A stretch of 53,221 bases of DNA. Origin: Hydrurus foetidus (taxonomy: Eukaryota). Position 1 is the stretch's first letter. Each line of letters starts with the position of its first letter. Positions 19,354 to 46,685 of the stretch are shown here, piece after piece. The DNA is taken from assembly GCA_900617105.1 (NCBI GenBank), contig UYFQ01000007.1, positions 1-53,221 of the forward strand. The letters run 5' to 3'. The notes under the pieces were generated by a model. That model had not been told where the DNA came from, did not search any database, and saw only the letters and a list, made by a program, of their open reading frames with translations. Made by a program: the position numbers and the translations under genes.

Positions 19354-20331
19354 TTGCCTTCAAACTTGAATTCCATCGGCGCACGTCCCTCTCGCTTTCG
19401 CCGCGAGAGGGTGTTGATCGTCGGCTGTGGTGATGTGGGGCAGCGTACTTTGAGCGCGTTGGTGGGTCGTGTTCATGTACTGGCACTGACCTCTACAACC
19501 GCGAGGGTGGCCGATTTAAGGACGCTTGGCGTCACGCCGCTGCTGGGCAATTTAGACCAGCCCCAGACCTTGGCACGACTGGCGGGCATCGCCCACCGGG
19601 TGCTGCATTTGGCACCACCAGCATCAGCATCCTCGGCGGGGTCGCAGGGCGTGGATTCGCGCACGGCATCCTTGTTGCGGGTATTACGCCAACGCGCTGT
19701 GCCTTCGATGGTGGTGTACGGCTCCACCAGCGGTGTATATGGCGATTGCGGTGGTGAAATCGTGTCAGAAATAAGAGCACCTAACGCCCATACAGCAAGG
19801 GCAGAGAGGCGAATGGATGCTGAAAGCCGGTTGCGCCAGTTTGGCCGGGCCACGTCAGCGCGTGTCAGCATCCTGCGCATCCCTGGCATCTACGCTCCGA
19901 ACCGCGCTGAGGGGATGCCTTTGGGCCGTTTACGACTGTGTACCCCTGTGCTCGACGCTGCCGATGACGTGTATACCAACCACATCCACGCCGACGACTT
20001 GGCCCGTGCTTGCGTGGCGGCGCTGTGGCGTGGCAAGCCGCAGCGGGTGGTCAATATCAACGATGACACGCAGCTTAAGATGGGGGATTATTTTGATGTG
20101 GCAGCGGACATGTACGGCTTAGCACGTCCCCCTCGGGTATCGAGAGCTGAGGCGACTGTGCAATTGTCACCCTTGCGCCTGAGCTTCATGAGCGAATCAC
20201 GTCGCATGGACAACAACCGCATGAAGCGCGAATTGCGTTTGCAGTTGCACTACCCTACAGTGCATACAGGGCTGTTGGTAAAAACCTTACCTCAGAGTTT
20301 GTCTTATACAACTCGGCTAAACTCAAGTTAG
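19354..20331 (+). CDS. NAD-dependent epimerase/dehydratase (SDR)
   Basis: GCGDVG, STSGVYGD, NHIHADDLA, SFMSESRR; TTG start inferred. Confidence 0.85.
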   Translation: MPSNLNSIGARPSRFRRERVLIVGCGDVGQRTLSALVGRVHVLALTSTTARVADLRTLGVTPLLGNLDQPQTLARLAGIAHRVLHLAPPASASSAGSQGVDSRTASLLRVLRQRAVPSMVVYGSTSGVYGDCGGEIVSEIRAPNAHTARAERRMDAESRLRQFGRATSARVSILRIPGIYAPNRAEGMPLGRLRLCTPVLDAADDVYTNHIHADDLARACVAALWRGKPQRVVNINDDTQLKMGDYFDVAADMYGLARPPRVSRAEATVQLSPLRLSFMSESRRMDNNRMKRELRLQLHYPTVHTGLLVKTLPQSLSYTTRLNSS

Positions 20332-24654: not shown

Positions 24655-27612
24655 TTACGCCAAACGTGTGAACTGTTCCTTGATTTTTTCCAGCGTGGCT
24701 GAAAAATCAGCCATCCGTTTGCGCTCCAAATCAATCACCGCAGGGGGCGCTTTGGCGACGAAAGCCTCATTTGACAGCTTGCCCGTGGTCTTGGCGATTT
24801 CGCCCTCTAAGCGGGCCATCTCTTTGGAGAGGCGTGCTTTTTCGGCGGCCACATCGATTTCCATGTGCAGGCAAATACGCAGCGCAGCGTCGCCAGAACC
24901 CACCACAGCTACCGGTGCGGCCTGGGCTGCGGCCTGCCATTCAGCCACGTCGGCAAACACCTTGACTTCATTCAGCTTGGCCAAGGACTTCAGCACGGCG
25001 GCGGATGCGGTCAAAAACTCGGCCTCAGCCGCATTGCCAGCCACCGCGTACAACGGTAAACGGGTAGCGGGCGACACGTTCATTTCGCCGCGCAGGTTGC
25101 GGCACACGTCCACCAGTTGCTTGAGCTTGCCCACATGGGCGATAGCCGCTTCGTCGATTTTGTTGGGCTGGCTTTGAGGGTAAGGAGCGATGCTGACCGA
25201 TTCCCCTGCAATGCCCGCCACCGGTGCCACTTTTTGCCAGAGTTCTTCCGTGATGAATGGGATCACGGGATGCGCCAAGCGCAAAATTGCCTCCAACGTG
25301 CGGATCAGTGTGCGGCGGGTGGCCCGCTGTTGGGCTGCGTCTCCGGTCTGGATTTGCACTTTGGCGATTTCCAGATACCAGTCGCAGAACTCGTTCCACA
25401 CAAAGTCGTACAGCGTGTTCGCCACGTTGTCCAAGCGGTAATCGGCAAAGCCTTTTGCCACATCTGCTTCCACTTTTTGTAGCACCGAGCTGATCCAGCG
25501 GTCAGCTTGGCTGAAATTCATGTAGCCATGCGCCACTCCACCCGGCTGGCATTCGGCTTTGGTGTGCGCCATCAGCCCGCAGTCTTGCCCCTCACAGTTC
25601 ATCAGCACAAAGCGCGTGGCGTTCCAAAGCTTGTTGCAAAAATTGCGATAGCCCTCGCAACGCTTGCTATCAAAATTGATGCTGCGACCCAGGCTGGCCA
25701 AGGCCGCGAAGGTGAAGCGCAGAGCGTCCGCACCGTAGGCAGGGATGCCCTCGGGGAATTCTTTCTCGGTGGCTTTGCGCACCTGGGGCGCGGTCTCGGG
25801 TTTGCGCAGACCTGTGGTGCGCTTGTCCAGCAAGGGGCTAAGGGTGATGCCGTCGATCAAATCCACCGGGTCGAGCACATTGCCCTCCGATTTGCTCATC
25901 TTTTTGCCCTGTGCATCGCGCACCAGACCGTGGATGTAAACATGCTTGAACGGCACGCGCCCCGTGAAATGCGTGGTCAGCATGATCATCCGGGCCACCC
26001 AGAAGAAAATGATGTCGTAGCCCGTCACCAACACGCTGCTGGGCAGGTACAGGTCGTAATCCTCAGTTTTCTCGGGCCAGCCCATTGTTGAGAAGGGAAC
26101 CAACGCAGACGAATACCAGGTATCCAGCACATCATCATCGCGCCGCAAAGGCCCGGTATATCCAGCTTTTAGCGCTTTCTCGCTTGCCTCATCAGCGTTG
26201 CGTGCTACAAAAACTGAACCATCTTCACCGTACCAAGCCGGGATTTGATGCCCCCACCACAGTTGGCGGCTGATGCACCAGTCTTGGATGTTGTTCATCC
26301 ACTGGTCATAGGTGTTCACCCAGTTTTCGGGCACAAAGCGCACTTCGCCGGACTTCACCGCGTCAATCGCTTTTTGCGCGATGCTCTTTCCCGTGGGGTC
26401 AGACTCGCTCACCTTGTTCACTGCCATGAACCACTGGTCGGTCAACATCGGTTCCACGACCTGACCCGTGCGCGTACACACCGGCACCATGTTTTTATGC
26501 GGCACCGCCTTTTGCAGGAAACCCTGTGCCTCCAGGTCTTTCAACACCGCTTTGCGGCAGTCGTAGCGGTCAAGACCCCGGTAGTTTGCGGGGCCGTTCT
26601 CGTTGATCTTCGCGTCCAGCGTGAAGATGGTGATGAGCGGCAGACCGTGGCGCTGCGAGCAGGCGTAGTCGTTGAAGTCATGCGCGCCGGTGATCTTCAC
26701 GCAGCCCGAGCCGAACGCGATGTCCACAAAATCATCCGCAATGATGGGGATGCTGCGCCCGCACAGCGGCAAATCGACCCTTTTGCCCAGCAGATGCTTG
26801 TAGCGCTCATCCTCCGGGTGAACGCACAGCGCACCGTCCGCCAGCATCGTTTCAGGCCGGGTCGTTGCGATGTGCATGCCGCGCATCGGCGTGCCGTCAG
26901 CGGCGGTTTGCGGGCCATCGGTGAACGGGTACTCGATGTGCCACATGAAGCTGTTGCGCTCTTCGTTTTCCACCTCCAGATCGCTCACCGCGCTTTGCAG
27001 CACAGGGTCCCAGTTCACCAGCCGCTTGCCCCGGTAAATCAGACCTTGGTCAAACAGTTGAACAAAAGTCTCGGTCACGGTGTTGGACAGCTTGTCGTCC
27101 ATCGTGAAATACTCGCGGCTCCAGTCCACGCTGGCCCCCACGCGGCGCATCTGGTTAGAAATCGTGTTGCCCGACTTCTCTTTCCATTCCCACACCTTGG
27201 ACACGAAATTCTTGCGCGACACGTCCGGCGTAGGCCCCATGTCATGGCGGCTGATGCCTTGCTCTTGCAACTGGCGCTCCACCACAATCTGCGTGGCAAT
27301 CCCCGCATGGTCCATCCCCGGAATCCACGCCGTGTTGAAGCCACTCATGCGGTGGTAGCGCGTCAAGCTGTCCATGATGGTCTGGTTGAACGCATGGCCC
27401 ATGTGCAGCGTGCCCGTCACATTGGGGGGCGGCAGCTGAATGCTGAACGCAGGCGCATCCGCCTGTGGCACCTTCGTTCCCCGAAACCCCGCCTCGGCAT
27501 ACCCGCGCTTTTCCCACTCCGGCCCCCACTGGGCTTCGAGCGCGGCGGGCTCGAAGGATTTAGAGAGGCTGTTCAGGCCGGGTTGTGCGGGCGTTGTAGG
27601 GGTTTCGGACAT
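24655..27612 (-). CDS. valS: Valine--tRNA ligase
   Basis: [31 protein letters not shown]-terminal coiled coil. Confidence 0.97.
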
Positions 27613-27868
27613 GGTGGTTTGTGTTTTGTTGAGTGAGGCACGGTGGGGAAATCTTTGCAGCTTCCCTGTGTGCCATGAATAGCATTCGATTTTACGAGGT
27701 GGCTTGCGTTGCACTTTCTTTGGGCACCGCTGAAAATCAAGCCTACATCATCAGATGTCTCCACCATGTGGCAGTGCAAGACTTGACCTCGCCTCCCTTA
27801 ACCCTGAGCAAGCGTTTAAACATTTCCGCTTAACCAAGCCAGTCCCGTAATTTTTTGGAGCATCCACC

Positions 27869-28114
27869 ATGAGTGCCTACGCTTTACGCTTACCCGAATC
27901 CCTCAAGCTTGCTGCCAAACGCATTGCAGCTCAAGACGACACCACCATGAACCAATTTTTCGTGGTTGCCATCGCCGAAAAAATCAGCGCTATGGAAACG
28001 GCCAAGTTTTTTGAAAACCGTGGGGCACTTGCGAATCCTCAAGCCGCCGATGCCGCCTGGGCCAAGGTCGCCCGCAGCACCGCACCTGTTGCAGGTGATG
28101 CGTGGCTGGGGTGA
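27869..28114 (+). CDS. Ribbon-helix-helix antitoxin-like protein (HicB-like annotation class)
   Basis: YALRLPESLK..MNQFFVVAIAEKIS RHH pattern; GGAG RBS. Confidence 0.72.
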   Translation: MSAYALRLPESLKLAAKRIAAQDDTTMNQFFVVAIAEKISAMETAKFFENRGALANPQAADAAWAKVARSTAPVAGDAWLG

Positions 28115-28137
28115 GTGCTCTTGAATCTATAGCTTCT
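28115..28137 (+). repeat. Truncated copy of the ~65-bp palindromic repeat
   Basis: GTGCTCTTGAATCTATAGCTTCT matches the first arm of the other copies. Confidence 0.55.
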
Positions 28138-28139
28138 GA

Positions 28140-28844
28140 CTACTGGGAGCGAAACACAAAAGTTCGATGAAAGTCCATAAACGGTTTATGTTGACTCGTA
28201 AGAGTAACCTGCATGCCAATCTCGATACCCAGTTGCTGCGGGTCTGATAGTAGTGGTGCCAGCGAAATCAGACCGTCTTCGCGAAAGGTGATTAATCCTG
28301 CATCGAACGCTTTATCGAGGTTTGGTGTCAGAAGTAGTCCGTTAAATGGATTCAGTCGCTCCGCATTGGTGCATGCCCGCCAAGGCTTGATATGTGAGGC
28401 AACAAGAAGGCCCATGTCGTTGTAGCCTGTAACTGCGCAAGCCTTCCAATAGGCTATGAGCTTCTGACGGAACGTGCCTTGACCGATGCGGCATTTGACG
28501 AGGTCGCGTCGCTCGGTTGGGCTGACGACTGAGTCGTCAAGGATCGCATCTATATCTGTCTCAACATCACCCGCATAGCCTTCAGCAAGGTACTCGGCGA
28601 ACTTGACGAGTGCGCTGCTGTACATGTTATGACCGCGTTCATTGCGCTCCTGAAAAATGGTGAGTAGTCGAATCTTCGATACAACATCGTTGTACGTTGT
28701 GATGCTTGTTAGAGCCGTGAGTGGCCCAGCCATGATGTTGCTCTCAATGGCCCACTGTGAAAGTGGCCCTTGAATGGCACCGGCGTATTTTTCTGCTGAG
28801 GATGAACTTAGTCCTCGGTGCAGCATCCATTCTTTAAAGATCAT
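28140..28844 (-). CDS. HNH endonuclease (putative restriction/defence nuclease)
   Basis: RIGQGTFR, CAVTG, ASHIKPW, NGLLL..NLDKAFD; visibly more AT-rich than neighbours. Confidence 0.85.
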   Translation of the reverse strand: MIFKEWMLHRGLSSSSAEKYAGAIQGPLSQWAIESNIMAGPLTALTSITTYNDVVSKIRLLTIFQERNERGHNMYSSALVKFAEYLAEGYAGDVETDIDAILDDSVVSPTERRDLVKCRIGQGTFRQKLIAYWKACAVTGYNDMGLLVASHIKPWRACTNAERLNPFNGLLLTPNLDKAFDAGLITFREDGLISLAPLLSDPQQLGIEIGMQVTLTSQHKPFMDFHRTFVFRSQ

Positions 28845-28910
28845 ATTTCGTCATTCCTGGAGTCGTGGGGTTGGATAAATGCACATTGACAAGGATCAGA
28901 TCTTGCATTT

Positions 28911-28976
28911 ATTCTCAGCTGAATCAGCCGCTACCGCATACGTAGAAAGCACTACAAGCTATCACTTAGATAGCAC
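28911..28976 (-). repeat. Full intergenic copy of the ~65-bp palindromic repeat
   Basis: GCTATC-TAAGT-GATAGC hairpin followed by a second imperfect hairpin; aligns with copies at 34.5, 35.7 and 38.5 kb. Confidence 0.7.
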
Positions 28977-30299
28977 TCACCCCCGCAGCGCCTTCTTTCT
29001 CACCAGCCCGATATTCCCCAGCAAGGAATATTGCTCATCCGTGTACGACAGCGGCACGTTGATTTTGCTGACCACTTGGGCCAAGTCGTCCAGCTCTTTC
29101 ACCAGTGCCGTTTGCTCGCTCGGCATCTCGTACAGGCGGCGTTCGATGTCGCGCAGTTGGGCGTACCAGCGGAACACGCGGGAGCGGATGCGGAATTGGT
29201 AGAGCGGGGGGACAATTTTGCTCAAGGGCAGCACCACGGCGACGATGATGCCCAAAGCGAGCCACATGCGTTCAATCAAATTGGCCAGCCAAAACGGCAG
29301 GTAATGCTGTAGCAGAGGCGAGCCGTTGCGGATAAATCGGTCGGCCTCGGGGGCCAGGGGGAATTCACCCAGCGTGGCTTTGGGGAAGTCACGAGCGCGG
29401 TTGAACCAGCCGGGGCCGCCGTGCAGTTTTTTAGCGGCTTGCGAGAACAGTTGCAGCAAAGCGGGGTGTGTGCCGTCCCGCGCCAACAAGGCCGTGGTGG
29501 AGGCGACTAAGCGCACATCCTGAGGCGGCGTGTTGCCTGCCAAGTCCACCACGCCACGCGGTAACACCACGGGGGTTAAAAACTCAAAGCGGCGCGAATA
29601 GGCTTCGCTCTGCGGAAAGTCCATCAGTTTGATGCCGGGGGTTTGCAGCAGCATTTGCACCATCAGCGCTTCAGGAGCCGAGGCGAAGACGATCACGTCA
29701 ATCTCGCCATTCAAAAAAGCCACCGTGGCCGGGGTTTGCGCCAGCTGGCTTAGTGTGATGGTTTTGGTGTCGATGCGGTTCACGTCGAACAAACGCGCCA
29801 TCAAATTCGGCACCCCGCTGCCCACCGTGCCCACGTTCACGCGCAAGCCTTGCAGTTGCGACAGCATGCCCAGCGTGGCCTCGGGGTTCAGCTTTTTGGC
29901 GGCGGCCTCTTGGTAAAACAACCAGACGGGTTCGACGAACAGGCTGCCCAGGGATTCCAGCGCGTAGTCGTCTGCCACGCTGGCCTCCAGGCTGCCGCCT
30001 TGCACAAAGGCAATGTCGGCTTTGCCGTCGCGCAGCAGTTCCAGGTTGGCCGATGAACCTTCGCTGGGCAGCAGCGTGACCTCAATGCCGTTGGCTTTGA
30101 GTGCTTTGGCGTAGCGCTTGCCAAACTCGTCATACGCACTCTGCGCGGGGCCGGTGGCAAGCGTGACGTGTTTCGGTGGCGTGGGGTCTAGCCACCAGTA
30201 GGCCAGGGCCAGCAGGGCTATGGCGAGCAGGGCGAGGGGCCCGGCGGAAACCAGCAGGTCTCGGACGGAGACGACGGTGTAGCGGATGGCTTGGGTCAT
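28977..30299 (-). CDS. TAXI-family solute-binding-like protein with N- and C-terminal membrane segments
   Basis: LATG, SEGSSANL, AFVQGG, EPVWLF, GSG motifs; hydrophobic segments at both ends. Confidence 0.78.
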   Translation of the reverse strand: MTQAIRYTVVSVRDLLVSAGPLALLAIALLALAYWWLDPTPPKHVTLATGPAQSAYDEFGKRYAKALKANGIEVTLLPSEGSSANLELLRDGKADIAFVQGGSLEASVADDYALESLGSLFVEPVWLFYQEAAAKKLNPEATLGMLSQLQGLRVNVGTVGSGVPNLMARLFDVNRIDTKTITLSQLAQTPATVAFLNGEIDVIVFASAPEALMVQMLLQTPGIKLMDFPQSEAYSRRFEFLTPVVLPRGVVDLAGNTPPQDVRLVASTTALLARDGTHPALLQLFSQAAKKLHGGPGWFNRARDFPKATLGEFPLAPEADRFIRNGSPLLQHYLPFWLANLIERMWLALGIIVAVVLPLSKIVPPLYQFRIRSRVFRWYAQLRDIERRLYEMPSEQTALVKELDDLAQVVSKINVPLSYTDEQYSLLGNIGLVRKKALRG

Positions 30300-33847: not shown

Positions 33848-34255
33848 TCAACTGCTGAGCCAAGGCTGCACAAACGCGAACCAGCCTCCCACCAGGTACA
33901 CCAGCACACTGAAACCGTACACCGCTGCCGACACTTTGCGGGTGCGCAGGCAGGCGTGGCGCAACGCGGGGTCTGTCGGGCAGGGTGCGCTGCGGCCCGA
34001 CCATTGCAGGGTGCCTGCTGCTGCCAGCATCAGGCCCGCAAAGCCAAAGAGGCCTTCTTTGTGCTCGCTCAGCCAGACCAGTTGCGGCACTGCAGCCACC
34101 AGAGACGACAGAGCCGCCCCAGCACCCAGGGCCACCAGCAGGGCGGGCAGGGCGCAGCAGACCAAGGTGCTGCTGCTGGCGAACAGGCTGGCAACGGACG
34201 ACCACAGGTTGCTACGGCCGAGCGAGCTGCCGTCGCCCATGTCACCGGGTTTCAT
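33848..34255 (-). CDS. MerT-like three-TM metal transporter
   Basis: CC pair in TM1 (LVCCALP), CP..C in loop, three hydrophobic segments. Confidence 0.65.
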   Translation of the reverse strand: MKPGDMGDGSSLGRSNLWSSVASLFASSSTLVCCALPALLVALGAGAALSSLVAAVPQLVWLSEHKEGLFGFAGLMLAAAGTLQWSGRSAPCPTDPALRHACLRTRKVSAAVYGFSVLVYLVGGWFAFVQPWLSS

Positions 34256-34596
34256 CGTTTGGCCTTGGTATCGGCTTTGATTTCAGCCACCGAGCGCGGC
34301 ACGTTTTCTAGCTTTACCACGTCATAACCGGCTTCGGTGATCTCGGTGCTGATCGTTTGGGTGTCCAGCTTTTGACCGTCTTTGGGTTCCACCGCAACGA
34401 CTTTGTTCTTCAAATCGACAAACACCGCTTTGGTGGCAGGCAGGGCGGACAGGCGTTTTTCGATGCCTTGGGCGCAGAAGGCGCAAACCATGCCGTTCAC
34501 GGTGACGCGCACCGATTCAGCCGCATATGCAGAAGAAAAAAGACCATTGTTGCATGCCAGTAGGGCTGTAACAGCTATGAATTTGATAGTTTTCAT
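34252..34596 (-). CDS. Exported heavy-metal-associated (HMA, MerP-like) protein
   Basis: Signal peptide ending AYA, GMVCAFC, AGY. Confidence 0.85.
   Translation of the reverse strand: MKTIKFIAVTALLACNNGLFSSAYAAESVRVTVNGMVCAFCAQGIEKRLSALPATKAVFVDLKNKVVAVEPKDGQKLDTQTISTEITEAGYDVVKLENVPRSVAEIKADTKAKR
34531..34592 (-). repeat. In-frame copy of the ~65-bp repeat encoding the signal peptide
   Basis: CTATCAAATTCATAGCTGTTACAGC..ATGC aligns in register with the intergenic copy. Confidence 0.6.
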
Positions 34597-34639
34597 GAGG
34601 TTATCCAAAAGAGAGAAAAGAAAGAAAAAAGGAATGGGG

Positions 34640-35332
34640 CTAAAAGATGTACATCAGGTTGAAGCGCACTTGGGCTGATCGGCTGATGCCCAGCTCGATA
34701 AAGTAGCGCTGGTGAATCAAGCGCAGCATGGGGGTGATTTCGGTTTTGCCCGACAAACCCCGCATGCGCCTGAGTTCGACGATCACCCAGGGCTGGGTTT
34801 CGTCGTAGTCCGCCTCAAAGAGCGAGAAACCAGCCCGCACCGAGGAGTAGTCGTGATTTACTTCTTTGGCGCGGTAAAGCCGAGCGTTGGCCGAAAAGTA
34901 GACCCGGGTGGTTTCATAGTCAAGCTGCATGCCTGGCGTAAGCAAAAGCCGGCTGCTTGTCAGGTTATTGCCTGTGAGCGTGCCCATGCCACCCGTTAGC
35001 CACAGGTTGGCTTGGGCCTCGGGCATGTTCCAGCGTGAGAGCAGTCGGGTAACGTTCACCTCCACGGCTTCGCGGGTGAGGCGTTTGTCGTCTGAGCGCA
35101 TGGTGACACCGCCCACGCCGATGGCATCGCGGGCGGTGAGGGCGTAGTTCACCCAGGTTTCTTGCCAGTTTGGGCTGAAGTCGCCCATCACCATCGTGCT
35201 GCCTTTGAAGCCCATAGGCCCGGCAATCGCTTGGGTGCTGAAGGCAAAGCAGGTGCTGAGGCCGATAGCCCAAGCTGTAGCCCAGGCAGCCCGAATGGGG
35301 TGCGGGCGCTGTGAGGCAATGTGGTTTTTCAT
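34640..35332 (-). CDS. Hypothetical exported protein, probable outer-membrane beta-barrel
   Basis: Signal peptide (AIA), alternating amphipathic strands, C-terminal FNLMYIF. Confidence 0.6.
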   Translation of the reverse strand: MKNHIASQRPHPIRAAWATAWAIGLSTCFAFSTQAIAGPMGFKGSTMVMGDFSPNWQETWVNYALTARDAIGVGGVTMRSDDKRLTREAVEVNVTRLLSRWNMPEAQANLWLTGGMGTLTGNNLTSSRLLLTPGMQLDYETTRVYFSANARLYRAKEVNHDYSSVRAGFSLFEADYDETQPWVIVELRRMRGLSGKTEITPMLRLIHQRYFIELGISRSAQVRFNLMYIF

Positions 35333-35421
35333 GACCATCTTTCCGTGCGAACCCGTGCCGATGACGGGGAACTGACCAACCTGTCCAGCGGGTGTGCTGG
35401 ACGCTTTTTAAAGGGGATTGG

Positions 35422-35844
35422 TTACGCGTTCGGGGGCTTCAAGCCAGCTTGTATGTCGGCACTGGCAAAAGCCACTTGGGTGTGAGGAGCCGCAGGGGGA
35501 TGCGGGGCCAGGGTGCGCTGTACAAGCGTTGAGGCTGGCAATGCCGCTGACACACACAGCTCGCAAGTGTCACAGCCGGTACACGGTGCGCTTTCGGGCG
35601 TATCCGACATTGGCATGGTGCAGCCCGGTGGCATGGCAGGGGTGGATGTGGATGAAGATATGGATGAAAAATAGGCTTCAGTGCTTGCTGTATGGGCGGT
35701 AGAAGCTATCAATTTTGATGGTGAACTGACCGATGCCATCATCCTGCCCCCCATCCCTACCGCCATGGCATCGCCCACCCATGCGCGCAGGGGCAGCAGG
35801 GCGACCAAGGCAATCAGCAAAAGGGGGCGTAAGAAGCGCAGCAT
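35422..35844 (-). CDS. Cys-rich leader-type protein (DUF2946/CutF/CruR-like)
   Basis: Signal-like LLPLRAWVGDAMA, CxxCxxCxxC, FASA..GLKPP C-terminus; paralog of 41838-42194. Confidence 0.72.
   Translation of the reverse strand: MLRFLRPLLLIALVALLPLRAWVGDAMAVGMGGRMMASVSSPSKLIASTAHTASTEAYFSSISSSTSTPAMPPGCTMPMSDTPESAPCTGCDTCELCVSAALPASTLVQRTLAPHPPAAPHTQVAFASADIQAGLKPPNA
35661..35722 (-). repeat. In-frame internal copy of the ~65-bp repeat
   Basis: CCATCAAAATTGATAGCTTCTACCGC..AAGC aligns with the other copies. Confidence 0.65.
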
Positions 35845-35935
35845 GGTCGTGAGAGTACGAATGCGCCCCCAGAGTTCCCGTCCATGAGAGCGTGGTGTCC
35901 GATAATTGAAAATCCATTCTCCGTGCCCATCCTTT

Positions 35936-37069
35936 ATGCCTTTGACCCCCTCTCTCAAGCCGCTGCGCATCGTCCCCCAGTCGAGTGCGCAGCCCACGCT
36001 CTCCAAAGCCCAGCAGGCGTTCAACACCCTGGTCAAAAAGATAGAAATCCGCCGCCATGAGCTGGCGCAGTGGCAGGCCACGGTAGACCAGTACCAGCAA
36101 AAGCTGGCCAGCAGTTACCGTCCCTTGATGACCCGCTTTAACCAGCAAAAGACCGCGTTCGTGTTGGCCTTAGATCAAGCTTTGGGCCACATGGAACAGC
36201 GCAAGGGGCTGACCCGCACCGAGCGCACGGTGGTGGAAGACATCATTTGCAATCTCGCGGAGCAATTGCTGTCGGGGCCAGAGACGCAAGACGATGCCGT
36301 CAAAGAACTCTACAACCGCTACCACGAGGTGGACTTCGACACCCAAGAGGCGCAGGCGGTCAGCGCCTTCAAAGCGGGCCTGGAGCGCGATCTGGGTGTT
36401 GAGCTGGACGACTGGCCCGAAGACGCAACCCCCGCCGAGGTGTTGGCGCAATTGCAAGCCAAAATGACCGGGCTAGAGGACGAGCAGCGCCCCCCACCCA
36501 AAAAGAAAACCGCCAAGCAGCTCGCCCGCGAAGCCAATCAAAAAGCCGAAGAAGACCAGACCAGCCTTTCCATCCGCGAGGTCTACCGCAAACTGGCCAG
36601 CGCCCTGCACCCTGACCGTGAACCTGACGAGGCTGAGCGCGAGCGCAAAACCGGGTTGATGCAGCGTGTCAACCAAGCCTACGCCAAGAAAGATTTGCTC
36701 AAACTGCTGGAGTTGCAACTGGAGCTGGAGCACATCGACGAACACACCATCGCGGGCCTGTCGGAAGACCGCCTCAAGCATTACAGCAAGGTATTGAAAG
36801 AGCAAGTGAAAGAGCTGGAGCAAGAAATCGCCCAGCTGGAGCATCCGCTGAAAGCCCAGTTTCATGTCCACCCGTACCAAACGCTGTCGTACAAGAGCGT
36901 GATGCCCCTGATGATGCGCGACATGGCCGATTTACAGCGCCACATCAACCAAATTAAGCAGGATATGCGGGTGTTGGGCGACCCCCCCGCCTTCAAGGTG
37001 TGGATCAAGGCCTACAAGCGCGAGCTGAAGGCCCACCAAGCAGAGCGCGATGAGTTTGATTTTTTCTGA
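35936..37069 (+). CDS. Coiled-coil protein with internal J-domain
   Basis: IREVYRKLASALHPDR..MQRVNQAY. Confidence 0.82.
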   Translation: MPLTPSLKPLRIVPQSSAQPTLSKAQQAFNTLVKKIEIRRHELAQWQATVDQYQQKLASSYRPLMTRFNQQKTAFVLALDQALGHMEQRKGLTRTERTVVEDIICNLAEQLLSGPETQDDAVKELYNRYHEVDFDTQEAQAVSAFKAGLERDLGVELDDWPEDATPAEVLAQLQAKMTGLEDEQRPPPKKKTAKQLAREANQKAEEDQTSLSIREVYRKLASALHPDREPDEAERERKTGLMQRVNQAYAKKDLLKLLELQLELEHIDEHTIAGLSEDRLKHYSKVLKEQVKELEQEIAQLEHPLKAQFHVHPYQTLSYKSVMPLMMRDMADLQRHINQIKQDMRVLGDPPAFKVWIKAYKRELKAHQAERDEFDFF

Positions 37070-37088
37070 AGCGGCTTGGAGAACCAAG

Positions 37089-37379
37089 CTACTTCGTTGG
37101 AGTTGCTTGCAACGTCAGGATGGTGATGGCTCCATCTACGTTTTCTGCGGTGAACGCCACGCTGTCCCCGGCTTTTAAACCTTCAAGCAGCTTGGTTTCT
37201 TTTACACGGAACACCATCGTCATGCCTGGCATGTCCAGGTTTTTGATGGGGCTGTGTTTGAGGGTTATTTTGCCGTTTTCGGTGTCAATTTTGCGCACTA
37301 CACCGGTAGTCATGTCTGCAGTTTGAGCCATCGCAGCGCTGCTCAGCAGCAGGGTAAGACTTGCAATCCAGAGTTTCAT
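37089..37379 (-). CDS. CusF-like periplasmic copper-binding protein
   Basis: Signal peptide, ITLKH..NLDMPGMTMVF. Confidence 0.88.
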   Translation of the reverse strand: MKLWIASLTLLLSSAAMAQTADMTTGVVRKIDTENGKITLKHSPIKNLDMPGMTMVFRVKETKLLEGLKAGDSVAFTAENVDGAITILTLQATPTK

Positions 37380-37415
37380 GGTGTTTCCTTGGGTGGGTTG
37401 GGGGACGAACAGCGC

Positions 37416-37910
37416 TTATTTGGCAGAAACGGTGATCGTTCCGCGCATGCCGGCTTGGTAGTGCCCGGCGATCAGGCACGCAAAGTCGAACTGGCCGGGT
37501 TTGTTGAACGTCCAGATAATTTCGCCTGATTTAGCGGGGGCGACATGGGCCATATAGGGTTCTTCATGTTCCATCGTGGGGAACTTGACCATCAAAGCGG
37601 CGTGCTCTTCGTTTTCTTTGGTGGTGCCAATCACGAACTCATGCATCACCGCGCCGTCGTTTTTGACGGTAAATTTCACCGTTTCGCCCAGCTTTACCTT
37701 GATTTGGTTCGGTGTGAAGCGCATGGCATCGCTCATGCTGATGGCGACGGTGCGTTTGACGGCTTTGGCATCACCTGCAATCCCCCAGTCTTTTTGCTCT
37801 TTTTTGACAGGGCCAGTTTTGGCGGCATGGGTTTCGTCGCCGTGAGGAAAAGCGAATGTGCTGACACTGCTTATGACGATAGCGAGAAGGGTTGTGCTGA
37901 GGTTATTCAT
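37416..37910 (-). CDS. Periplasmic cupredoxin (CopI/plastocyanin-like)
   Basis: MRFTP, HEFVIG, ACLIAGHYQAGM type-1 Cu ligands. Confidence 0.88.
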   Translation of the reverse strand: MNNLSTTLLAIVISSVSTFAFPHGDETHAAKTGPVKKEQKDWGIAGDAKAVKRTVAISMSDAMRFTPNQIKVKLGETVKFTVKNDGAVMHEFVIGTTKENEEHAALMVKFPTMEHEEPYMAHVAPAKSGEIIWTFNKPGQFDFACLIAGHYQAGMRGTITVSAK

Positions 37911-37939
37911 GTCGATTCCTTAAAAAATGGCTGCTATGG

Positions 37940-38524
37940 TTACTGAGACGATGTTGGGGTGTCGCTGTAGCCACGTAAGACGCTGTACTGCGTAATCTGC
38001 TGTTGGGTGAGCAATTGGGCTTGTTTTAAATGGGTTTCTAAGTGCGCGTTGCGTACTTTCGCCTGTATTTCACCTGTGTGTTGCGTCAGCAAGGTCAATC
38101 GGGTCGTATCAATATGGTGATGGGCAAAAGCTTGATCCAGTTGTCGCTCTGCTTCAACCCATTGCTTGCCGAGTGCGCGAACTTCTGCTTTGTGCTGTGC
38201 CAGAAGCTGCGCGGTGGCTTCGCGCTGTGCTGGTGAGAGGTGCAAGGCATCAGCCAGTTCCAGGGTGTGCATGGGGCCAGGGTAGCCATTGAGTTCAGCT
38301 GCTTTGGCCAGTTCCATACCTTTGCCCGCCAGCATGTCGTTGACTTGGGTGTCTGATAAGGCTTTGATGACGCGCGTTTGTTGTCCTGCATAAGCGTTCG
38401 TTGTCTTCGCTGTATGTTCAAGATCATGCCGATGTTCAAGGGGCACCGATTTTTGGCTGAATGCACTTGCACCGCTTACCAACAGGGCGGTAGCAGCTAT
38501 AAATTTAAGAGTGATTGAACGCAT
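37940..38524 (-). CDS. Spy/CpxP-like periplasmic heavy-metal-associated protein
   Basis: Signal peptide, GMELAKAAELNGYPGP, LTQQQ, helical. Confidence 0.68.
   Translation of the reverse strand: MRSITLKFIAATALLVSGASAFSQKSVPLEHRHDLEHTAKTTNAYAGQQTRVIKALSDTQVNDMLAGKGMELAKAAELNGYPGPMHTLELADALHLSPAQREATAQLLAQHKAEVRALGKQWVEAERQLDQAFAHHHIDTTRLTLLTQHTGEIQAKVRNAHLETHLKQAQLLTQQQITQYSVLRGYSDTPTSSQ
38451..38514 (-). repeat. In-frame copy of the ~65-bp repeat encoding the signal peptide
   Basis: CTCTTAAATTTATAGCTGCTACCGC-N11-GCGGT. Confidence 0.65.
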
Positions 38525-38550
38525 GATTTTCCTTTGAGAGTTGAGTCAAA

Positions 38551-39981
38551 TTAATGGCCGCTGTGGCCCTGGGGTTTGCGAACCTGTACTTCGATGGGGT
38601 TAAGTTTTTTCGCTGTGCTGGCGACGGCTGGCGTGCTGTCGGCTTTGAAGCGTGCTGGCTCGGCCAGTGGCCCTGTATGTTCAAAAGCCACCGTGCCCGC
38701 TGGGTGCTTGAACCAGCCGGGGTTGCTGTAATCGCCCGCTTTTTGGTCTTTGCGCACTTTCAGCACGCTGAACATGCCGCCCATCTCGATTCCGCCAAAT
38801 GGCCCTTGGCCGGTCATCATGGGCACGGTGTTGTCGGGCAGGGGCATTTCCATTTCGCCCATGTCGGCCATGCCGCGCTCGCCCATCACCATGTAATCGG
38901 GGATGAGGCGGGTGATTTTTTTGGCCACATCCCGGTGGTCTACGCCGATCATGGTGGGCACGTTGTGGCCCATCGCGTTCATGGTGTGGTGGCTTTTGTG
39001 GCAATGAAAGGCCCAGTCGCCTTCTTCGTCTGCCAAGAAGTCAATTTGCCGCATTTGCCCCACCGCCACATCGGTGGTGACTTCGGGCCAGCGGGCGGAT
39101 TTGGGCACGGGCCCGCCGTCGGTGCCGGTGACGGTGAATTCGTGGCCGTGCAGGTGGATGGGGTGGTTGGTCATGGTCAGGTTGCCGATGCGGATGCGAA
39201 CCTTGTCGTTTTGGCGCACGCACAGCGGGTCAATGCCAGGGAAGATGCGGCTGTTCCATGTCCATAAATTCTGGTCAAGCATGGTCATGATCTTGGGCGT
39301 GTAGCTGCCAGGGTCAATGTCGTAGGCGTTGAGCAGGAAGCAAAAATCGCGCTGAACCTCGTCGATATGTGCATTTTTTGCTTTGGGGTGCGTCACCCAA
39401 AACCCCATCATCCCCATCGCCATTTGCGTCATCTCATCCGCGTGGGGGTGGTACATGAAGGTGCCAGGGCGGCGGGCGACAAATTCATAAACATAGGTTT
39501 TGCCGGGTTGGATGGATTTTTGTGTCAGGCCGGACACGCCGTCCATGCCGTTGGGCAAGCGCTGGCCGTGCCAATGCACGCTGGTGTGTTCGGGCAGGCG
39601 GTTGGTGACGAAGCAGCGCACGCGGTCACCTTCCACCACCTCAATCGTCGGGCCGGGCGACTGGCCGTTGTAGCCCCAAAGATGGGCCTTCATGCCAGGG
39701 GCCATCTCGCGCACCACGGGTTCGGCCACGAGGTGAAACTCTTTCACGCCGTTGTTCATGCGCCAGGGCAGCGTCCAGCCGTTCAGCGTGACCACCGGGT
39801 TGTAAGGCTGGCCGTTGGGTGGAACCAGTGGCGGCATGGTGTTGGGCTTGGTTTGTGTGACCAGCTCGGGCAGGGCTGCCAGGGCGACTTGGCTGATGGC
39901 TGTGGCGGCGACAGCACCGCCCGCGAGACTGGCCATGCCGGAGATTCCGGCTGTTTTAAAAAATTGGCGTCTGGAGTTCAT
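38551..39981 (-). CDS. Tat-exported multicopper oxidase
   Basis: SRRQFFK Tat motif, HWHG, MYHPH, HPIHLHG, HCHKSHH. Confidence 0.92.
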   Translation of the reverse strand: MNSRRQFFKTAGISGMASLAGGAVAATAISQVALAALPELVTQTKPNTMPPLVPPNGQPYNPVVTLNGWTLPWRMNNGVKEFHLVAEPVVREMAPGMKAHLWGYNGQSPGPTIEVVEGDRVRCFVTNRLPEHTSVHWHGQRLPNGMDGVSGLTQKSIQPGKTYVYEFVARRPGTFMYHPHADEMTQMAMGMMGFWVTHPKAKNAHIDEVQRDFCFLLNAYDIDPGSYTPKIMTMLDQNLWTWNSRIFPGIDPLCVRQNDKVRIRIGNLTMTNHPIHLHGHEFTVTGTDGGPVPKSARWPEVTTDVAVGQMRQIDFLADEEGDWAFHCHKSHHTMNAMGHNVPTMIGVDHRDVAKKITRLIPDYMVMGERGMADMGEMEMPLPDNTVPMMTGQGPFGGIEMGGMFSVLKVRKDQKAGDYSNPGWFKHPAGTVAFEHTGPLAEPARFKADSTPAVASTAKKLNPIEVQVRKPQGHSGH

Positions 39982-40022
39982 GGTGAATTCTTTACGTTGT
40001 GAGGTGGCGTGGCTGTAGGTGT

Positions 40023-41429
40023 TCAATGCGCTGCACCGCCAGCGACGTTGGGGGTTGACATCGCAGTCATCGGAGCCGCCGTGGGCTGGCCTATCAGTGC
40101 GGTTTGCAGGGCCGCGTCGGCCAGCCAAAACTGCTGCTCAGCGGCAATCGCGGCGATCACGCTGCCCACTTGGTCGCGGGTGTCGGCCAGCAGCTCGAAC
40201 ACGCCAATCAGCATGCCGTTGTAGCGCAGCACGTTTTCTTCGGCGATGGTTTGGCGCAGCGGCACCACCTCGTCGCGGTAGTGGCGGGCCACGTCAAAGG
40301 CGGTGCGGTAGGCGGAATAGCTTTCGCGCAGGTGCGAGCCAGCAGCGCGGGCAGTAGCTTCCAGCCGGTTTGCCGAAGCCAGGGTGCGGGCATTCATGGC
40401 ATCGCGTTGCAGGCCACCGCTGTCGAAAACGGGCAAACGCACGCTGACCTCGAAGCCACGCTGGGTGTTGGTGTGGCCTGCACCGTTGTCAAAAACGCTG
40501 TCACGCCGCACACCCAGTTCGATGTCGGTCAGGCTGGTGATGCGGTTCAAGCCTTGGGCCGTGGCCGCGCTCTCGAATTCCGCCTGGGCCAGTTGCAGGT
40601 CAAGCCGTCCGGTGCTGGCCGCACGGCTTGTGGCTTCGGGTGTGCGCGGGGCTTGGGGCAAATCAGGCAGTCGCTTAGGCAGCGCCAGCGTTGGGGCTTG
40701 GCTGTCGGTTAAGCCCAGCAGGCGAACCAAGGCTTCGCGGGTGGCGTTGGCCGTGTGCTGCGCGGTGGCCCATTGCGTGGCAGCATCGGCATAAAACGCC
40801 TGCTGGCGGGCGCGCTGTAGCTTGCTGAAGTTGCCCGCAGACTGCATGCGCCGCGCCAATTCGGCGCTGGCCTGCGCAGCGTCGTTCACCTGCTCTGCAT
40901 AAACCAGGCTTTGCTGCGCCGCCACCGCCTTGACCCAGGCCATGCGTACTTGGGTGATGTGCGCGACCACGTTGCTGGTTAAGCGCAACTGGGCTTGAAC
41001 TGTTTGGCGTTGCGCGAGGTTGTGGCGCTGGGGCAGCATCAGCAGGTCTAACAGGCCGAAGGAGAGCAATCGGCCAATCTCAAGCTCGTCCACCAACCGC
41101 AGGCGCTCCAGTGTGAAGGCGGGGTTGGCGATGCGCCCGCTTTGGGCGGCGCTTGCCGCATCGGCCCAGTTTTGCGCCAGCAGGGCTTGTACTGCGGGGC
41201 TGCCCGCCAGTGCCAGCCGTACCGCATCGCTTTGGGTGACGGGTTGCTGCAACAACGTCGCTGCTACCTGCTTTTGCGCATCGCGCTGCTCTGGGGTCAG
41301 TGCCAAGGCTAATTCGCCTTGGGTGAAATCGGCGGCGACTTGGTTGGTGCGGGCCACAGACTGCTCGAAGTTGACGCTGGCACAGCCAGACAGCACAGCG
41401 AGGGTGATGGCGCTGACAACGGCTTTCAT
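40023..41429 (-). CDS. TolC/CusC-family outer membrane lipoprotein
   Basis: Lipobox LSGC, LPVFD, YNGMLIGVFELL. Confidence 0.88.
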   Translation of the reverse strand: MKAVVSAITLAVLSGCASVNFEQSVARTNQVAADFTQGELALALTPEQRDAQKQVAATLLQQPVTQSDAVRLALAGSPAVQALLAQNWADAASAAQSGRIANPAFTLERLRLVDELEIGRLLSFGLLDLLMLPQRHNLAQRQTVQAQLRLTSNVVAHITQVRMAWVKAVAAQQSLVYAEQVNDAAQASAELARRMQSAGNFSKLQRARQQAFYADAATQWATAQHTANATREALVRLLGLTDSQAPTLALPKRLPDLPQAPRTPEATSRAASTGRLDLQLAQAEFESAATAQGLNRITSLTDIELGVRRDSVFDNGAGHTNTQRGFEVSVRLPVFDSGGLQRDAMNARTLASANRLEATARAAGSHLRESYSAYRTAFDVARHYRDEVVPLRQTIAEENVLRYNGMLIGVFELLADTRDQVGSVIAAIAAEQQFWLADAALQTALIGQPTAAPMTAMSTPNVAGGAAH

Positions 41430-41744: not shown

Positions 41745-41838
41745 ATCTCCAGAAGGAAAGAACAGCAGCGAGGGCTGCGGAGCTGGTGCTGGTAGCTTGA
41801 TTGCCGTCAAATTACAGACGGAATCAGAGCCTGGAGAT
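41745..41838 (-). promoter_or_regulatory. SD-sequestering multibranch RNA structure
   Basis: ATCTCCAG at the leader stop pairs with CTGGAGAT (the RBS); two internal hairpins. Confidence 0.6.
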
Positions 41839-42194
41839 CACAGAAGCGGTGGTTTGAAGCCTTGGGCAGGCTCTGCGCTGGCAAAGTGCGTGGGCACCGG
41901 GGTGATGCGTGCCGCAGGCAGCGCGGGCAGCAGGGGGGTAAATTCAGTCACAGCCAAACCCAGCAGATGGCAGAGTTGGCACTGGGTGCAGCTTACGGTG
42001 GTGTCGGTTGCTTTGTTGGCATCGTCCGTGTTGGCTGCGTCAACGCCGGCCATCATCTCGGCGCAATGGGCTGAAGCGGCAGCGGCGGTGGATGCCACAC
42101 CGGCGGTAGCGCTTACAGGCATCGCCATCGAGTCACCCACCCAAGCACGCAGGGGCAGCAGGGCGATCAGCAGGATGAGGAAGAAACGGCGCAT
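41838..42194 (-). CDS. Cys-rich leader-type protein (DUF2946/CutF/CruR-like)
   Basis: LLPLRAWVGDSMA, CTQCQLCH, FASA..GFKPP. Confidence 0.75.
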   Translation of the reverse strand: MRRFFLILLIALLPLRAWVGDSMAMPVSATAGVASTAAAASAHCAEMMAGVDAANTDDANKATDTTVSCTQCQLCHLLGLAVTEFTPLLPALPAARITPVPTHFASAEPAQGFKPPLL

Positions 42195-42224: not shown

Positions 42225-42644
42225 TCAATTGAAATACAAGGCGATACGGTCAGTCGTCCACGTCGCAACACCCGTCCCGAAGAAGTCGGCATCCTCTGTC
42301 CAGACGGGGCAGTCCAAGGTCAGGGCGCAAGCCAGTACAGGCCAATCGTCGGCATCTCGCACAGCGATGCGTTGCAGCGCCTGTTGCTGCACGCCCTCAT
42401 ACAACTCGGCATCTATGGGCTGAACCACCGTTTCAAGGTGATCCAGCACCAGCATGGCCGCACTGGCGTCAACCCCGCGTTTCTTTAGCAGTGCAGGCAG
42501 GTACTTGCGTGCATCGGCATAGGCCACGTCAGGTGCAAAAAATTGCACCATTGCAGCGTTTTCAAAAATCAGTTCACGTACCCGCTTGCCCAGCACGGCG
42601 CGAATCAAGATGTTGGCATCAAGAATGATTGCCTTGCTGCTCAT
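42225..42644 (-). CDS. PIN-domain toxin
   Basis: ILDANILI, RDADDWP, WTEDADF acidic residues. Confidence 0.9.
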   Translation of the reverse strand: MSSKAIILDANILIRAVLGKRVRELIFENAAMVQFFAPDVAYADARKYLPALLKKRGVDASAAMLVLDHLETVVQPIDAELYEGVQQQALQRIAVRDADDWPVLACALTLDCPVWTEDADFFGTGVATWTTDRIALYFN

Positions 42645-42928
42645 GCTGCCTTGGCTTTCTGCATTTTGACCGGAGCGACAGCCTTCCTGCGCACCGCTTT
42701 GAAGTCGGCCACCACGTCCTCCACGTTAACGCTGTGCGTCTCAAGCAGCTTGTCCAAGGCTTTGCTGGCTTTTTTCAATGCCGCGAGATCGGCCTCAACC
42801 TGTCCCTGTGTAGGAATGAAGTAGCCTACGGTCTGGCCATGCCGTGTGACTGCCACAGGCGTGCTTGACGCGATGTATTCAGCCAAGCCTGTGCGGAACT
42901 CTCGAATGCCAACCCGTGCGGTTTCCAT
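42641..42928 (-). CDS. Phd/YefM-family antitoxin
   Basis: VGIREFR..PVAVTRHG; ATGA overlap with the toxin. Confidence 0.87.
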   Translation of the reverse strand: METARVGIREFRTGLAEYIASSTPVAVTRHGQTVGYFIPTQGQVEADLAALKKASKALDKLLETHSVNVEDVVADFKAVRRKAVAPVKMQKAKAA

Positions 42929-42952
42929 AGTGTGTGCCTTTTTGTGAATCTG

Positions 42953-42967
42953 TGTGTACACATTTTA
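42953..42967 (-). promoter_or_regulatory. TA operator palindrome next to -10 box
   Basis: TGTGTACACA palindrome abutting TAAAAT; the core GTGTACAC matches the P1 Phd box. Confidence 0.6.
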
Positions 42968-45570: not shown

Positions 45571-46685
45571 TGAATGCCAGAGTTGAAATTGCCTACGAAC
45601 AGCCTGCCTGCGCTACCCGTAGCGCCTGGGCGCGCATCCCCGTAGAGCCGACCCAGGCTGAGCGTGCGGCGCTGAAAGACAAAATCCGCGACCTCCTCAA
45701 AGCCCGCAATGCGGTGATGGTGTCGCACTACTACGTCCACCCCGATTTGCAGGATTTGGCCGAAGAAACAGGTGGCTTGGTCAGCGATTCGCTGGAAATG
45801 GCCCGCTTTGGCCGCGATCATGCAGCGCAGACATTGGTGGTTTCTGGCGTGCGCTTCATGGGTGAGACGGCCAAAATCCTCTCCCCCGAAAAGCGCGTGC
45901 TGATGCCCGATCTGGACGCGACCTGCTCACTCGATCTGGGCTGCCCGCTGGACGAATTCACCGCCTTTTGCGATGCCCACCCTGACCGCACCGTGGTGGT
46001 CTACGCCAACACCAGCGCGGCCGTCAAAGCGCGGGCCGATTGGCTGGTGACTTCCGGCTGTGCGCTTGACGTGGTGCGGGCTCTGAAAGACCAGGGCCAC
46101 AAAATCCTCTGGGCACCTGATAAACACCTGGGCGGCTACATTCAGCGCGAAACCGGCGCGGACATGCTGATGTGGCAAGGCAGCTGCATCGTGCATGACG
46201 AGTTCAAAGCCTTTGAACTGGAGATGCTCAAAAAAGACCACCCCGGTGCCAAGGTGCTGGTACACCCCGAGTCGCCTGCCGATGTGGTGGCGCTGGCCGA
46301 TGCTGTAGGGTCAACATCGGCCATTCTGCATGCCGCGCGAGCGATGGATGCTACAACTTTCATAGTCGCCACCGACAGCGGCATGATGCACAAGCTGCGC
46401 CATCAGAACCCCGGCAAGCTGTTCATTGAAGCCCCCACCGCAGGCACCAGCGCCACCTGCAAGAGCTGCGCCCAATGCCCCTGGATGGCGATGAACGGGC
46501 TGGCAGGCGTGGCGCAGGTGCTTGAAATGGCCCCGGCATCAGGGCCGGGTTTGAACGAGGTTCACGTTGACCCCGGCCTGGGCTTGCGGGCACGGGTGCC
46601 GATTGACCGGATGCTGGCTTTTACAGCGGCTTTGAAAGCCGGACAGTTGGTGAGCGGGCTGGTGCCCCGGATTGGGGTGGCGTAG
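45567..46685 (+). CDS. nadA: Quinolinate synthase
   Basis: SHYY, RFMGET, TCSL, YANT, CIVH, HPE, CPWM. Confidence 0.95.

Follow-up and report, generated by a model that had tools for sequence, protein, structure and literature searches.

Why should two periplasmic metal proteins with unlike mature domains begin with nearly the same residues? The question is raised by a copper-resistance cluster on contig UYFQ01000007.1 (assembly GCA_900617105.1, deposited under the name Hydrurus foetidus), whose full 53,221 nucleotides we call the window, and in which both N-termini are encoded by copies of one repeated DNA element of about 66 bp. The original prediction had read this repeat as a portable export signal that installs or replaces signal peptides. 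We find that the phenomenon is real and broader than that prediction saw, and that its mechanism is different: existing signal peptides were probably remodelled. As to why, we lean towards the view that the element is a protein-recognised, genome-wide DNA signal, resembling an uptake sequence, that is built and maintained wherever it is tolerated, so that unrelated signal peptides converge on it.

Two copper-cluster proteins begin with copies of one element

The cluster, the two proteins and the element copies at their starts lie as follows. Scores are from position weight matrices, the general one derived solely from 95 intergenic copies of two other genomes and the second belonging to the closest relative, G001, which is syntenic with 31 kb of the window at 79–91% nucleotide identity.

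33848–41429, minus strand: copper-resistance cluster, host of copies B, C and D (from open reading frames (ORFs) and Pfam).
34252–34596, minus strand: HMA-domain (CopZ/MerP-like) predicted periplasmic protein, 114 aa (Pfam PF00403).
34529–34594, minus strand: element copy B, coding for the n/h region of the Sec signal predicted for the HMA protein (28.7 bits with the general matrix, 44.1 bits with the G001 matrix).
37940–38524, minus strand: Spy/CpxP-like heavy-metal-resistance protein, 194 aa (Pfam PF13801, Metal_resist, E = 1.9e-6, just under the cut-off).
38451–38516, minus strand: element copy D, nearly the whole predicted signal peptide of the Spy/CpxP-like protein (38.3 bits general, 39.8 bits G001).

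Besides these two proteins the cluster encodes an outer-membrane efflux protein, a multicopper oxidase, a cupredoxin, CusF, a small ORF, a 231-aa ORF and a small membrane protein. The HMA gene is the middle one of a three-gene operon kept across the 80 HMA loci, and HMA relatives were found in Comamonadaceae and other Burkholderiales; at E ≤ 1e-15 the HMA protein had no plasmid homologue. Homologues of the Spy/CpxP-like protein carry the name Spy/CpxP family.

The reading frames and N-termini originally given for both proteins were borne out, near-identical proteins from independent assemblies (P0001, 99%; P0121, 96%) sharing the same N-termini. The mature parts are unlike: the sole BLASTP alignment between the two joins residues 3–21 of the HMA protein to residues 5–23 of the Spy/CpxP-like protein, with 11 of 19 identical. 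Copies B and D do encode the n/h regions near the ATG, element position 0 falling two codons past it in B and four in D. The signal peptides are predicted, their n/h/c layout being judged from sequence and a simple hydropathy check. By this heuristic alone both show the Gram-negative Sec layout, with two Lys or Arg within residues 1–8, best 8-mer hydropathies of 2.75 and 2.62, and small-x-small sites at 23–28 and 18–23. No Pfam or NCBIfam model spans the signal region. A codon-based gene caller clipped both signal peptides owing to the rare codons of copies B and D, so start sites of such genes may be mis-annotated.

The likeness to the element lies at the DNA level. We kept each peptide and resampled its synonymous codons 20,000 times under four codon-usage models; silent positions matched the element with p from <5e-5 to 0.007 for copy B and from <5e-5 to 0.0014 for copy D. 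A reversed-genome control of 1.6 million positions reached a top score of 2.9 bits, compared with 19.8–38.3 bits for the copies in the window.

The element is genome-wide and of fixed length

Copies B and D are members of a fixed-length element, about 66 bp long, of a subset of Comamonadaceae. Genome-wide counts were made in relatives, not in the window's own genome. A 16-letter palindromic pattern matched 190 times in G001, 405 times in the Polaromonas genome G002 and 238 times in the Rhodoferax genome G004; the same pattern matched 8 times in G003, never in G005 (Rhizobacter) and 0–4 times in controls. In an order-wide sample the strict pattern occurred in 4 of 301 genomes, at high copy in G002 only. 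An ungapped 66-column matrix built from intergenic copies identified 145 copies in 1.17 Mb, and per-genome matrices identified 119, 105 and 57 copies in 0.75, 0.8 and 0.4 Mb of G001, G002 and G004 (131–159 copies per Mb). A generic repeat finder run on the window did not report the family, and Rfam returned only a tRNA there and no element match in 60 kb of G002.

The element has the core GCTAY-N7-RTAGC, followed by GC at positions 24–25, G at 37 and A/T tracts. Its version differs from genome to genome: at base 38, 86% of G001 copies have C, and 95–96% of G002 and G004 copies have G. The window copies fit the G001 version, copy B scoring 44.1 bits with that matrix against 12.9 and 6.6 with those of other genomes. 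The strongest couplings between columns are of adjacent A-tract or T-tract columns (A-tract versus T-tract), which may reflect recognition of DNA shape.

With gene calls from an in-house hexamer caller, the 145 copies comprised 95 intergenic, 26 antisense, 13 internal in frame, 5 off frame, 4 N-terminal, 1 C-terminal and 1 upstream-open. Coding copies (n = 85) favour two frames, 32 lying in sense frame 0 and 30 in antisense frame 1. Convergent gaps are preferred (50 copies versus 92 such gaps of at least 70 bp), and only 14 intergenic copies fall to 231 divergent gaps. Near-identical recent copies of the MITE type (miniature inverted-repeat transposable element) were absent from the G001, G002 and G004 samples: no pair among 54, 75 and 26 intergenic copies, respectively, was at least 90% identical, and the best pairs, at 0.71–0.80, were inside the column-shuffle range. 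Inverted tail-to-tail pairs closer than 400 bp numbered 1 among 281 copies from the three genomes.

A further genome, G315 (124 kb; L260, L262, L263, L264, L266 and L270), has six tail-to-tail inverted doublets, with start-to-start distances of 220 bp in five and 210 bp in one. A second 210-bp pair was seen as well; the two distances differ by one helical turn.

Element-encoded signals occur in many protein families

Across the 80 HMA loci and the window, the element begins 32 HMA proteins, 6 cupredoxins and 5 Spy proteins, giving 43 signal copies. In sampled genome stretches it also starts LolA, an SCO lipoprotein, UrtB, CusF, a Peripla_BP_6 binding protein, a BPD_transp_2 permease and an SLT_2 transglycosylase. 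Of the places hit by a signal-tuned pattern, 8 of 22 in G001, 2 of 19 in G004 and 1 of 8 in G002 are starts of exported-type ORFs; those in G001 add DUF1775, DctP (twice), SBP_bac_6, a peptidase M16 and a 58-aa peptide. At the DNA level, at least 12 Pfam families thus have predicted exported members that begin in the element frame. At the protein level only, a 30-column profile run against 1.84 billion representatives adds SIMPL, DsbC, DUF4124 and an Ig-domain protein; its 49 matches lie mostly in the first 45 residues, many are fragments and 2 are unrelated repeats. A 40-aa profile returned almost nothing beyond its training families, and a strict peptide regular expression, which hit 86 of 120 HMA and 71 of 120 Spy homologues, misses obvious variants and was not used as a count.

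Among 493 genes with a hydrophobic N-terminus, 8 have an N-terminal copy, as against 2 among 1126 other genes (p = 0.002, an enrichment that is partly circular, one contig having been picked because it contains the HMA locus). The share of exported proteins concerned is therefore only one to two per cent. Neighbouring signals in the cluster gave no match of at least 18 bits with the general matrix (231-aa ORF, 0 of 75; oxidase, 0 of 20; CusF, 0 of 30).

Signal copies differ from their non-coding counterparts in what they encode. Lys stands at codon 3 in 39 of the 43, compared with 57 of 155 intergenic copies; codons 5–14 hold no charged residue in all 43, compared with 38 of 140. Mean hydropathy is 2.03 in signal copies, 0.64 in intergenic ones and 0.38 in internal in-frame ones, which are polar. 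None of the signal copies contains a stop, which 40 of 155 intergenic copies do. Judged by these residues, signal copies have apparently been selected for Lys and an uncharged core.

Proteins of 58–79 aa with an element-type signal, a His-rich HWH motif, a C-terminal hydrophobic stretch and no Pfam match form a family (L240:1495–1668; P0345, P0350, P0362 and P0372).

Existing signals were probably remodelled

To place the HMA signals, we used a tree of 81 rows, with no row removed, made from the three operon proteins after excluding the HMA signal region. A single 51-row clade (Shimodaira–Hasegawa-like approximate likelihood-ratio support 96) contains every row that has an HMA-signal DNA match. 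The 30 HMA orthologues outside it have plain signal-like N-termini of 21–25 aa, with element scores of −21 or lower. As all 30 were already signal-like, export was not installed by the element, and this part of the original prediction is not supported. Six of these rows come from genomes with 15–252 pattern matches, so having the element does not force it into the HMA gene.

Within the clade, the DNA match is present at 32 of 40 loci of element-rich genomes and at 0 of 10 of element-poor ones. Spy signals match in 5 of 6 element-rich and 0 of 4 element-poor cases, cupredoxin signals in 5 of 14 and 0 of 10. Base 38 of the HMA signal follows the genome majority in 24 of 26 G-type and 4 of 5 C-type rows (the scoring covers 31 of the 32 rows with a match); the codons of L014 and L060 differ only silently from the Gly codons of the G type. 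These comparisons are suggestive of signal copies that track their own genome's element version and lose the DNA match where the genome has no element.

The original prediction held that orthologues with the same N-terminus in genomes without the repeat would imply convergence or an older origin. Such proteins exist in part: L042, L043 and L063 have a similar peptide in GC-rich codons, in genomes with 3–11 matches, yet they are nested inside the clade. A similar peptide with ordinary codons in element-poor clade rows fits an old origin and later decay of the DNA match. A single clade of only the 33 DNA-matching HMA rows was rejected (approximately unbiased test, p = 0.0006); matching and decayed rows interleave, so gain is not separable from loss.

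One real transfer of a signal to another domain is found in G001. The genes concerned lie in the window at:

37089–37379, minus strand: CusF, with an ordinary signal-like N-terminus in the window and a copy-D-type signal in G001 (Pfam, N-terminus check).
37416–37910, minus strand: CopI-like cupredoxin, with an ordinary signal-like N-terminus in the window (Pfam, N-terminus check).

In G001 the ribosome-binding site and signal of copy D lead into CusF, not Spy, and homology stops at the 3' end of the element. G001 has neither Spy nor cupredoxin at its copper locus; because other relatives have the order oxidase–Spy–cupredoxin–CusF, a deletion in G001 probably made the junction. The idea of a portable export signal survives in that the element encodes n/h regions in many families and was swapped once in this way; as a general route by insertion it found no support.

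Natural cupredoxin–CusF fusions with an element-encoded N-terminus occur at L007:11316–12140 and L025:2033–2884. The titles of three loci (Asaia, Rhizobium and Bordetella, for L015, L028 and L078) clash with the operon tree, which places these loci among Polaromonas or Polynucleobacter rows; these bin titles look unreliable.

In other genes the element lies over codons already there

We compared seven sites in six genes with their orthologues, using 2–5 genomes each. In IleS, YggS, an SDR protein (NF006597) and the CCA enzyme at residue 387, the element occupies an orthologous site without full-length insertion. Element-rich genomes score +33/+33/+36 bits at IleS, +33/+36/+14 at YggS and +43/+39 at SDR, and element-poor orthologues of the three, in register, score −41 to −99 bits. 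Silent-site p is ≤0.0024 in all 8 element-rich rows and ≥0.075 in all 8 element-poor rows, and native residues are kept under the element at these three sites. In LolA and the binding protein the element lies over a signal already present, and in HpnE 3 of 4 orthologues spell it over a conserved N-terminal motif by silent codon choice (p ≤ 1e-4). Shuffling synonymous codons within genes reduced coding sites above 20 bits from 54, 25 and 21 to 3, 1.3 and 0.3.

As in DNA uptake sequences (DUS), coding copies thus show an in-place origin and preferred frames. Element-length in-frame insertions, as expected of a MITE or a Rickettsia palindromic element, were not seen at IleS, YggS, SDR or CCA residue 387, and the compared orthologues contained no clean pair of filled and empty sites. 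Mobility by insertion, which the original prediction assumed, is therefore not supported as the general route: several coding copies came without full-length insertion, and G001, G002 and G004 lack near-identical intergenic copies. The element likely remodelled existing signals in place and was not a mobile cassette installing export.

What may build and maintain the element

The account that we favour, of a protein-recognised signal, would run as follows. A trans-acting protein would read the palindromic core and the phased A/T tracts, and selection or drive for such sites, perhaps through biased DNA uptake or a chromosome-organising role, would build and refresh copies where they are tolerated: in convergent gaps, enzyme loops and helices, and signal peptides. 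The element would enter genes mostly by overwriting existing codons. Signal peptides would converge on it because their constraints are loose and their Lys-Ala-Ile-Leu composition is near the element's sense frame. The HMA signal probably received it in a single entry at the base of the 51-row clade, with decay where the genome-wide element was lost, and signal modules may then have been reshuffled by ordinary deletion, as with CusF in G001. More tentatively, Polaromonas- and Rhodoferax-type bacteria may possess an undescribed recognition signal of about 66 bp, either a long uptake signal or a helically phased nucleoid-protein site, whose drive rewrites coding DNA and with whose species-specific version exported-protein signals co-evolve.

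Several observations weigh against a maintained, protein-recognised signal. Spacing is near random (coefficient of variation 0.87–0.96), without the evenness of uptake signal sequences (USS) or DUS; mean nearest-neighbour identity is slightly above that of shuffles; and in G315, at about 300 copies per Mb, the version is very uniform and one pair 590 bp apart is 98% identical. Coding sites in G002 and G004 are bimodal, 27 exceeding 0 bits and 25 exceeding 20, with no cloud of near matches such as gradual drive should leave. At residue 97 the CCA enzyme exceeds its G005 counterpart by 10–12 aa, the G003 and G333 enzymes falling in between, and most HMA signals that contain the element surpass those of the outgroup by several residues. 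Eight clade loci in element-rich genomes have no HMA-signal match. The 43 signal copies, being orthologues of three families only, are not independent, and well-supported branches give only three independent contrasts, on average two in the same direction and none opposite, which is not significant. No recognising protein emerged among ComP-like pilins and Y1_Tnp genes; by a comparison of presence, the pilin receptor candidate (PF16732) does not correlate with the element, being found in 36 of 41 genomes, element-rich and element-poor alike.

The best-surviving rival, which we regard as unlikely, is an old mobile repeat of the REP (repetitive extragenic palindromic) or MITE type that inserts itself, or is pasted over partly similar sites, and that replaced signals behind start codons before selection tuned the copies and gene conversion homogenised them; this is the original prediction in its replacing form. 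The all-or-none coding matches, the residues gained by the CCA enzyme and by HMA signals, the G315 doublets and the strong preference for convergent gaps, which is also reported for REPs (PMC3733652), would all suit it, as would a G001 gene at the cut-off of the NF047646 model for REP-associated tyrosine transposases (RAYTs; 80.2 versus 80). Against it stand IleS, YggS and SDR, which kept their residues, the purely silent spelling in HpnE, the lack of intergenic copies at least 90% identical and the lack of a conserved hairpin. RAYT-like genes, moreover, have no flanking arrays and are found in element-poor genomes too. As a mobiliser RAYT was rejected: arrays flank it at 0 of 4 and 0 of 7 loci, and Y1_Tnp genes occur in 45 of 50 genomes, rich and poor alike. 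The copies nearest to RAYT-like genes are single and lie at least 0.9 kb away or inside neighbouring genes.

It is very improbable, and already largely refuted, that these are ordinary signal peptides alike only through Ala/Ile/Leu composition and AT-rich 5' codons. Similar peptides do persist in element-poor genomes (L042, L043 and L063; the G333 binding protein, at −0.4 bits), and the peptide of copy B alone has an expected score of +27 bits under a model with 75% AT at third codon positions and the G001 matrix; even under that model, however, silent-site p is ≤0.007, all 30 outgroup HMA signals score −21 or lower, neighbouring cluster signals are unmatched, and signal copies follow the genome version at base 38.

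Equally remote is the idea that copies are kept as RNA hairpins tuning initiation, as the original prediction suggested for the first hairpin, or as copper-regulation operators: each copper cluster has two to four copies, several at gene starts, and the core is palindromic, but B and D have no stable fold (z-scores of +1.05 and +0.61, no better than shuffles), most signal copies (35 of 43) have a disrupted first arm (position 0 is G in 8 of 43 versus 134 of 155 intergenic), pair 4:12 is a C:A mismatch in 47 of 155, there is neither covariation nor a conserved second stem, second-palindrome pairing differing between genomes, divergent gaps are almost avoided and the affected genes are not metal-specific.

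Two Y1_Tnp genes may be recorded here. A single-copy RAYT-like gene beside a glutamate synthase gene is kept in the Comamonadaceae loci L083 (1462–2160), L081, L082, L084 and L286, with no element copies around it. A second, of about 290–300 aa, lies upstream of squalene synthase-like and HpnE genes in five Polaromonas genomes (L280–L284), whose HpnE has one or two in-frame element copies.

Relation to known dispersed sequences

The comparisons below draw on portions of the cited papers. USS of Pasteurellaceae and DUS of Neisseriaceae accumulate in place and reshape proteins (Findlay & Redfield 2009, PMC2817400). Like them, the element has hundreds of copies on both strands, a probable origin by mutation and recombination and not insertion, preferred frames and a place at weakly conserved protein positions. 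USS/DUS cores are 9–10 bp, non-palindromic and present at 0.8–0.9 per kb, whereas the element is about 66 bp with a palindromic core and occurs at 0.13–0.3 per kb; its coding matches are also all-or-none, without an excess of near matches. The available portion of PMC2817400 makes no mention of convergent signal peptides.

Coding repeats are known elsewhere. The Yersinia RU-2/YPAL sequence in YPO1552 is a 168-bp MITE fused into one or two putative proteins (Delihas 2007, PMC2759123; 2008, PMC2229807); unlike it, the element occurs in at least 12 Pfam families of many species, with signs of selection, version tracking and evidence against simple insertion. Rickettsia palindromic elements (PMC10969869, PMC2229807) are likewise dispersed and translated in frame in many unrelated proteins, but are stem-loop insertions of about 150 bp that add peptide, whereas many coding copies of the element lengthen the protein little or not at all and no stem proved to be conserved. 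GTAG-family REPs and their REPIN doublets with RAYTs (Di Nocera et al. 2013, PMC3733652) share an RTAG word by an imperfect palindrome, a location in convergent and co-directional gaps and some intragenic copies; the element differs in being longer, ungapped, mostly single-copy and not flanked by RAYTs. Polaromonas, Rhodoferax, Acidovorax and Comamonas did not turn up in a text search of the accessible part of that paper.

Fragments may have been seen before. Tong et al. (2017, PMC5217627) list ATAGCT(N)22CAAAAG from P. naphthalenivorans and GCTTAT(N)5AAGCG from A. ebreus as potential novel motifs; both fit the element register, at positions 12–45 and 24–39, and would appear to be pieces of it. 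The motifs have a similar intergenic and convergent bias, and in the part of the paper available no full-length element, function or protein-level effect is given. The element is not mentioned in the available portions of PMC3733652, PMC10969869 and PMC2755013, and the literature outside subscription journals and supplements gave no description of the full element or its signal peptides.

If the favoured account is true, a non-coding DNA signal dictates export-signal sequence across a bacterial family, and proteins converge by a route other than protein function. Sister genomes with and without the element make it possible to test whether coding repeats arise by insertion or by overwriting in place, and the element points to a candidate system, for DNA binding or uptake, in abundant bacteria of fresh water and glaciers.

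Other copies and neighbouring genes in the window

Three further copies were scored in the window:

35660–35725, minus strand: copy C, in the same frame as B and D, forming an internal polar linker of a 140-aa small secreted-type ORF (35422–35844); 29.3 bits.
28913–28978, minus strand: non-coding copy at the stop codon of an NMT1-like gene; 33.3 bits, same site occupied in G001.
19758–19823, plus strand: lower-scoring copy, in frame within an NAD-dependent epimerase gene; 19.8 bits with the general matrix and 25.7 with that of G001.

Copy C has silent-site p ≤ 0.007 in all four codon models and stands at the same site in G001; its host ORF has a weak paralogue at 41838–42194. Both small ORFs are CopL/CzcI-like and lie beside parts of the cluster. 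The element is confined to the inner one (35422–35844), which exceeds the other by 22 aa, but in an alignment too weak to call an insertion.

A ValS site at 25670 was a chance word match, no copy, and was left out of matrix scoring. With the G001 matrix, weak element-like sites lie in valS (26155–26224, minus strand, 18.9 bits) and antisense in a nadA-like gene (46305–46370, minus strand, 17.9 bits). Between valS and the NMT1-like gene (27620–28900), an HNH nuclease gene (28140–28844) and a small ORF (27869–28114) are both missing from G001; the two are placed between the element copy at 28974 and an inverted look-alike of the element start at 28100–28135. A DnaJ-domain coiled-coil gene lies within the copper cluster on the opposite strand (35906–37069, plus), and upstream of the cluster is a PIN_2/Phd-like toxin–antitoxin pair (42225–42961, minus) that is missing from the aligned G001 stretch.

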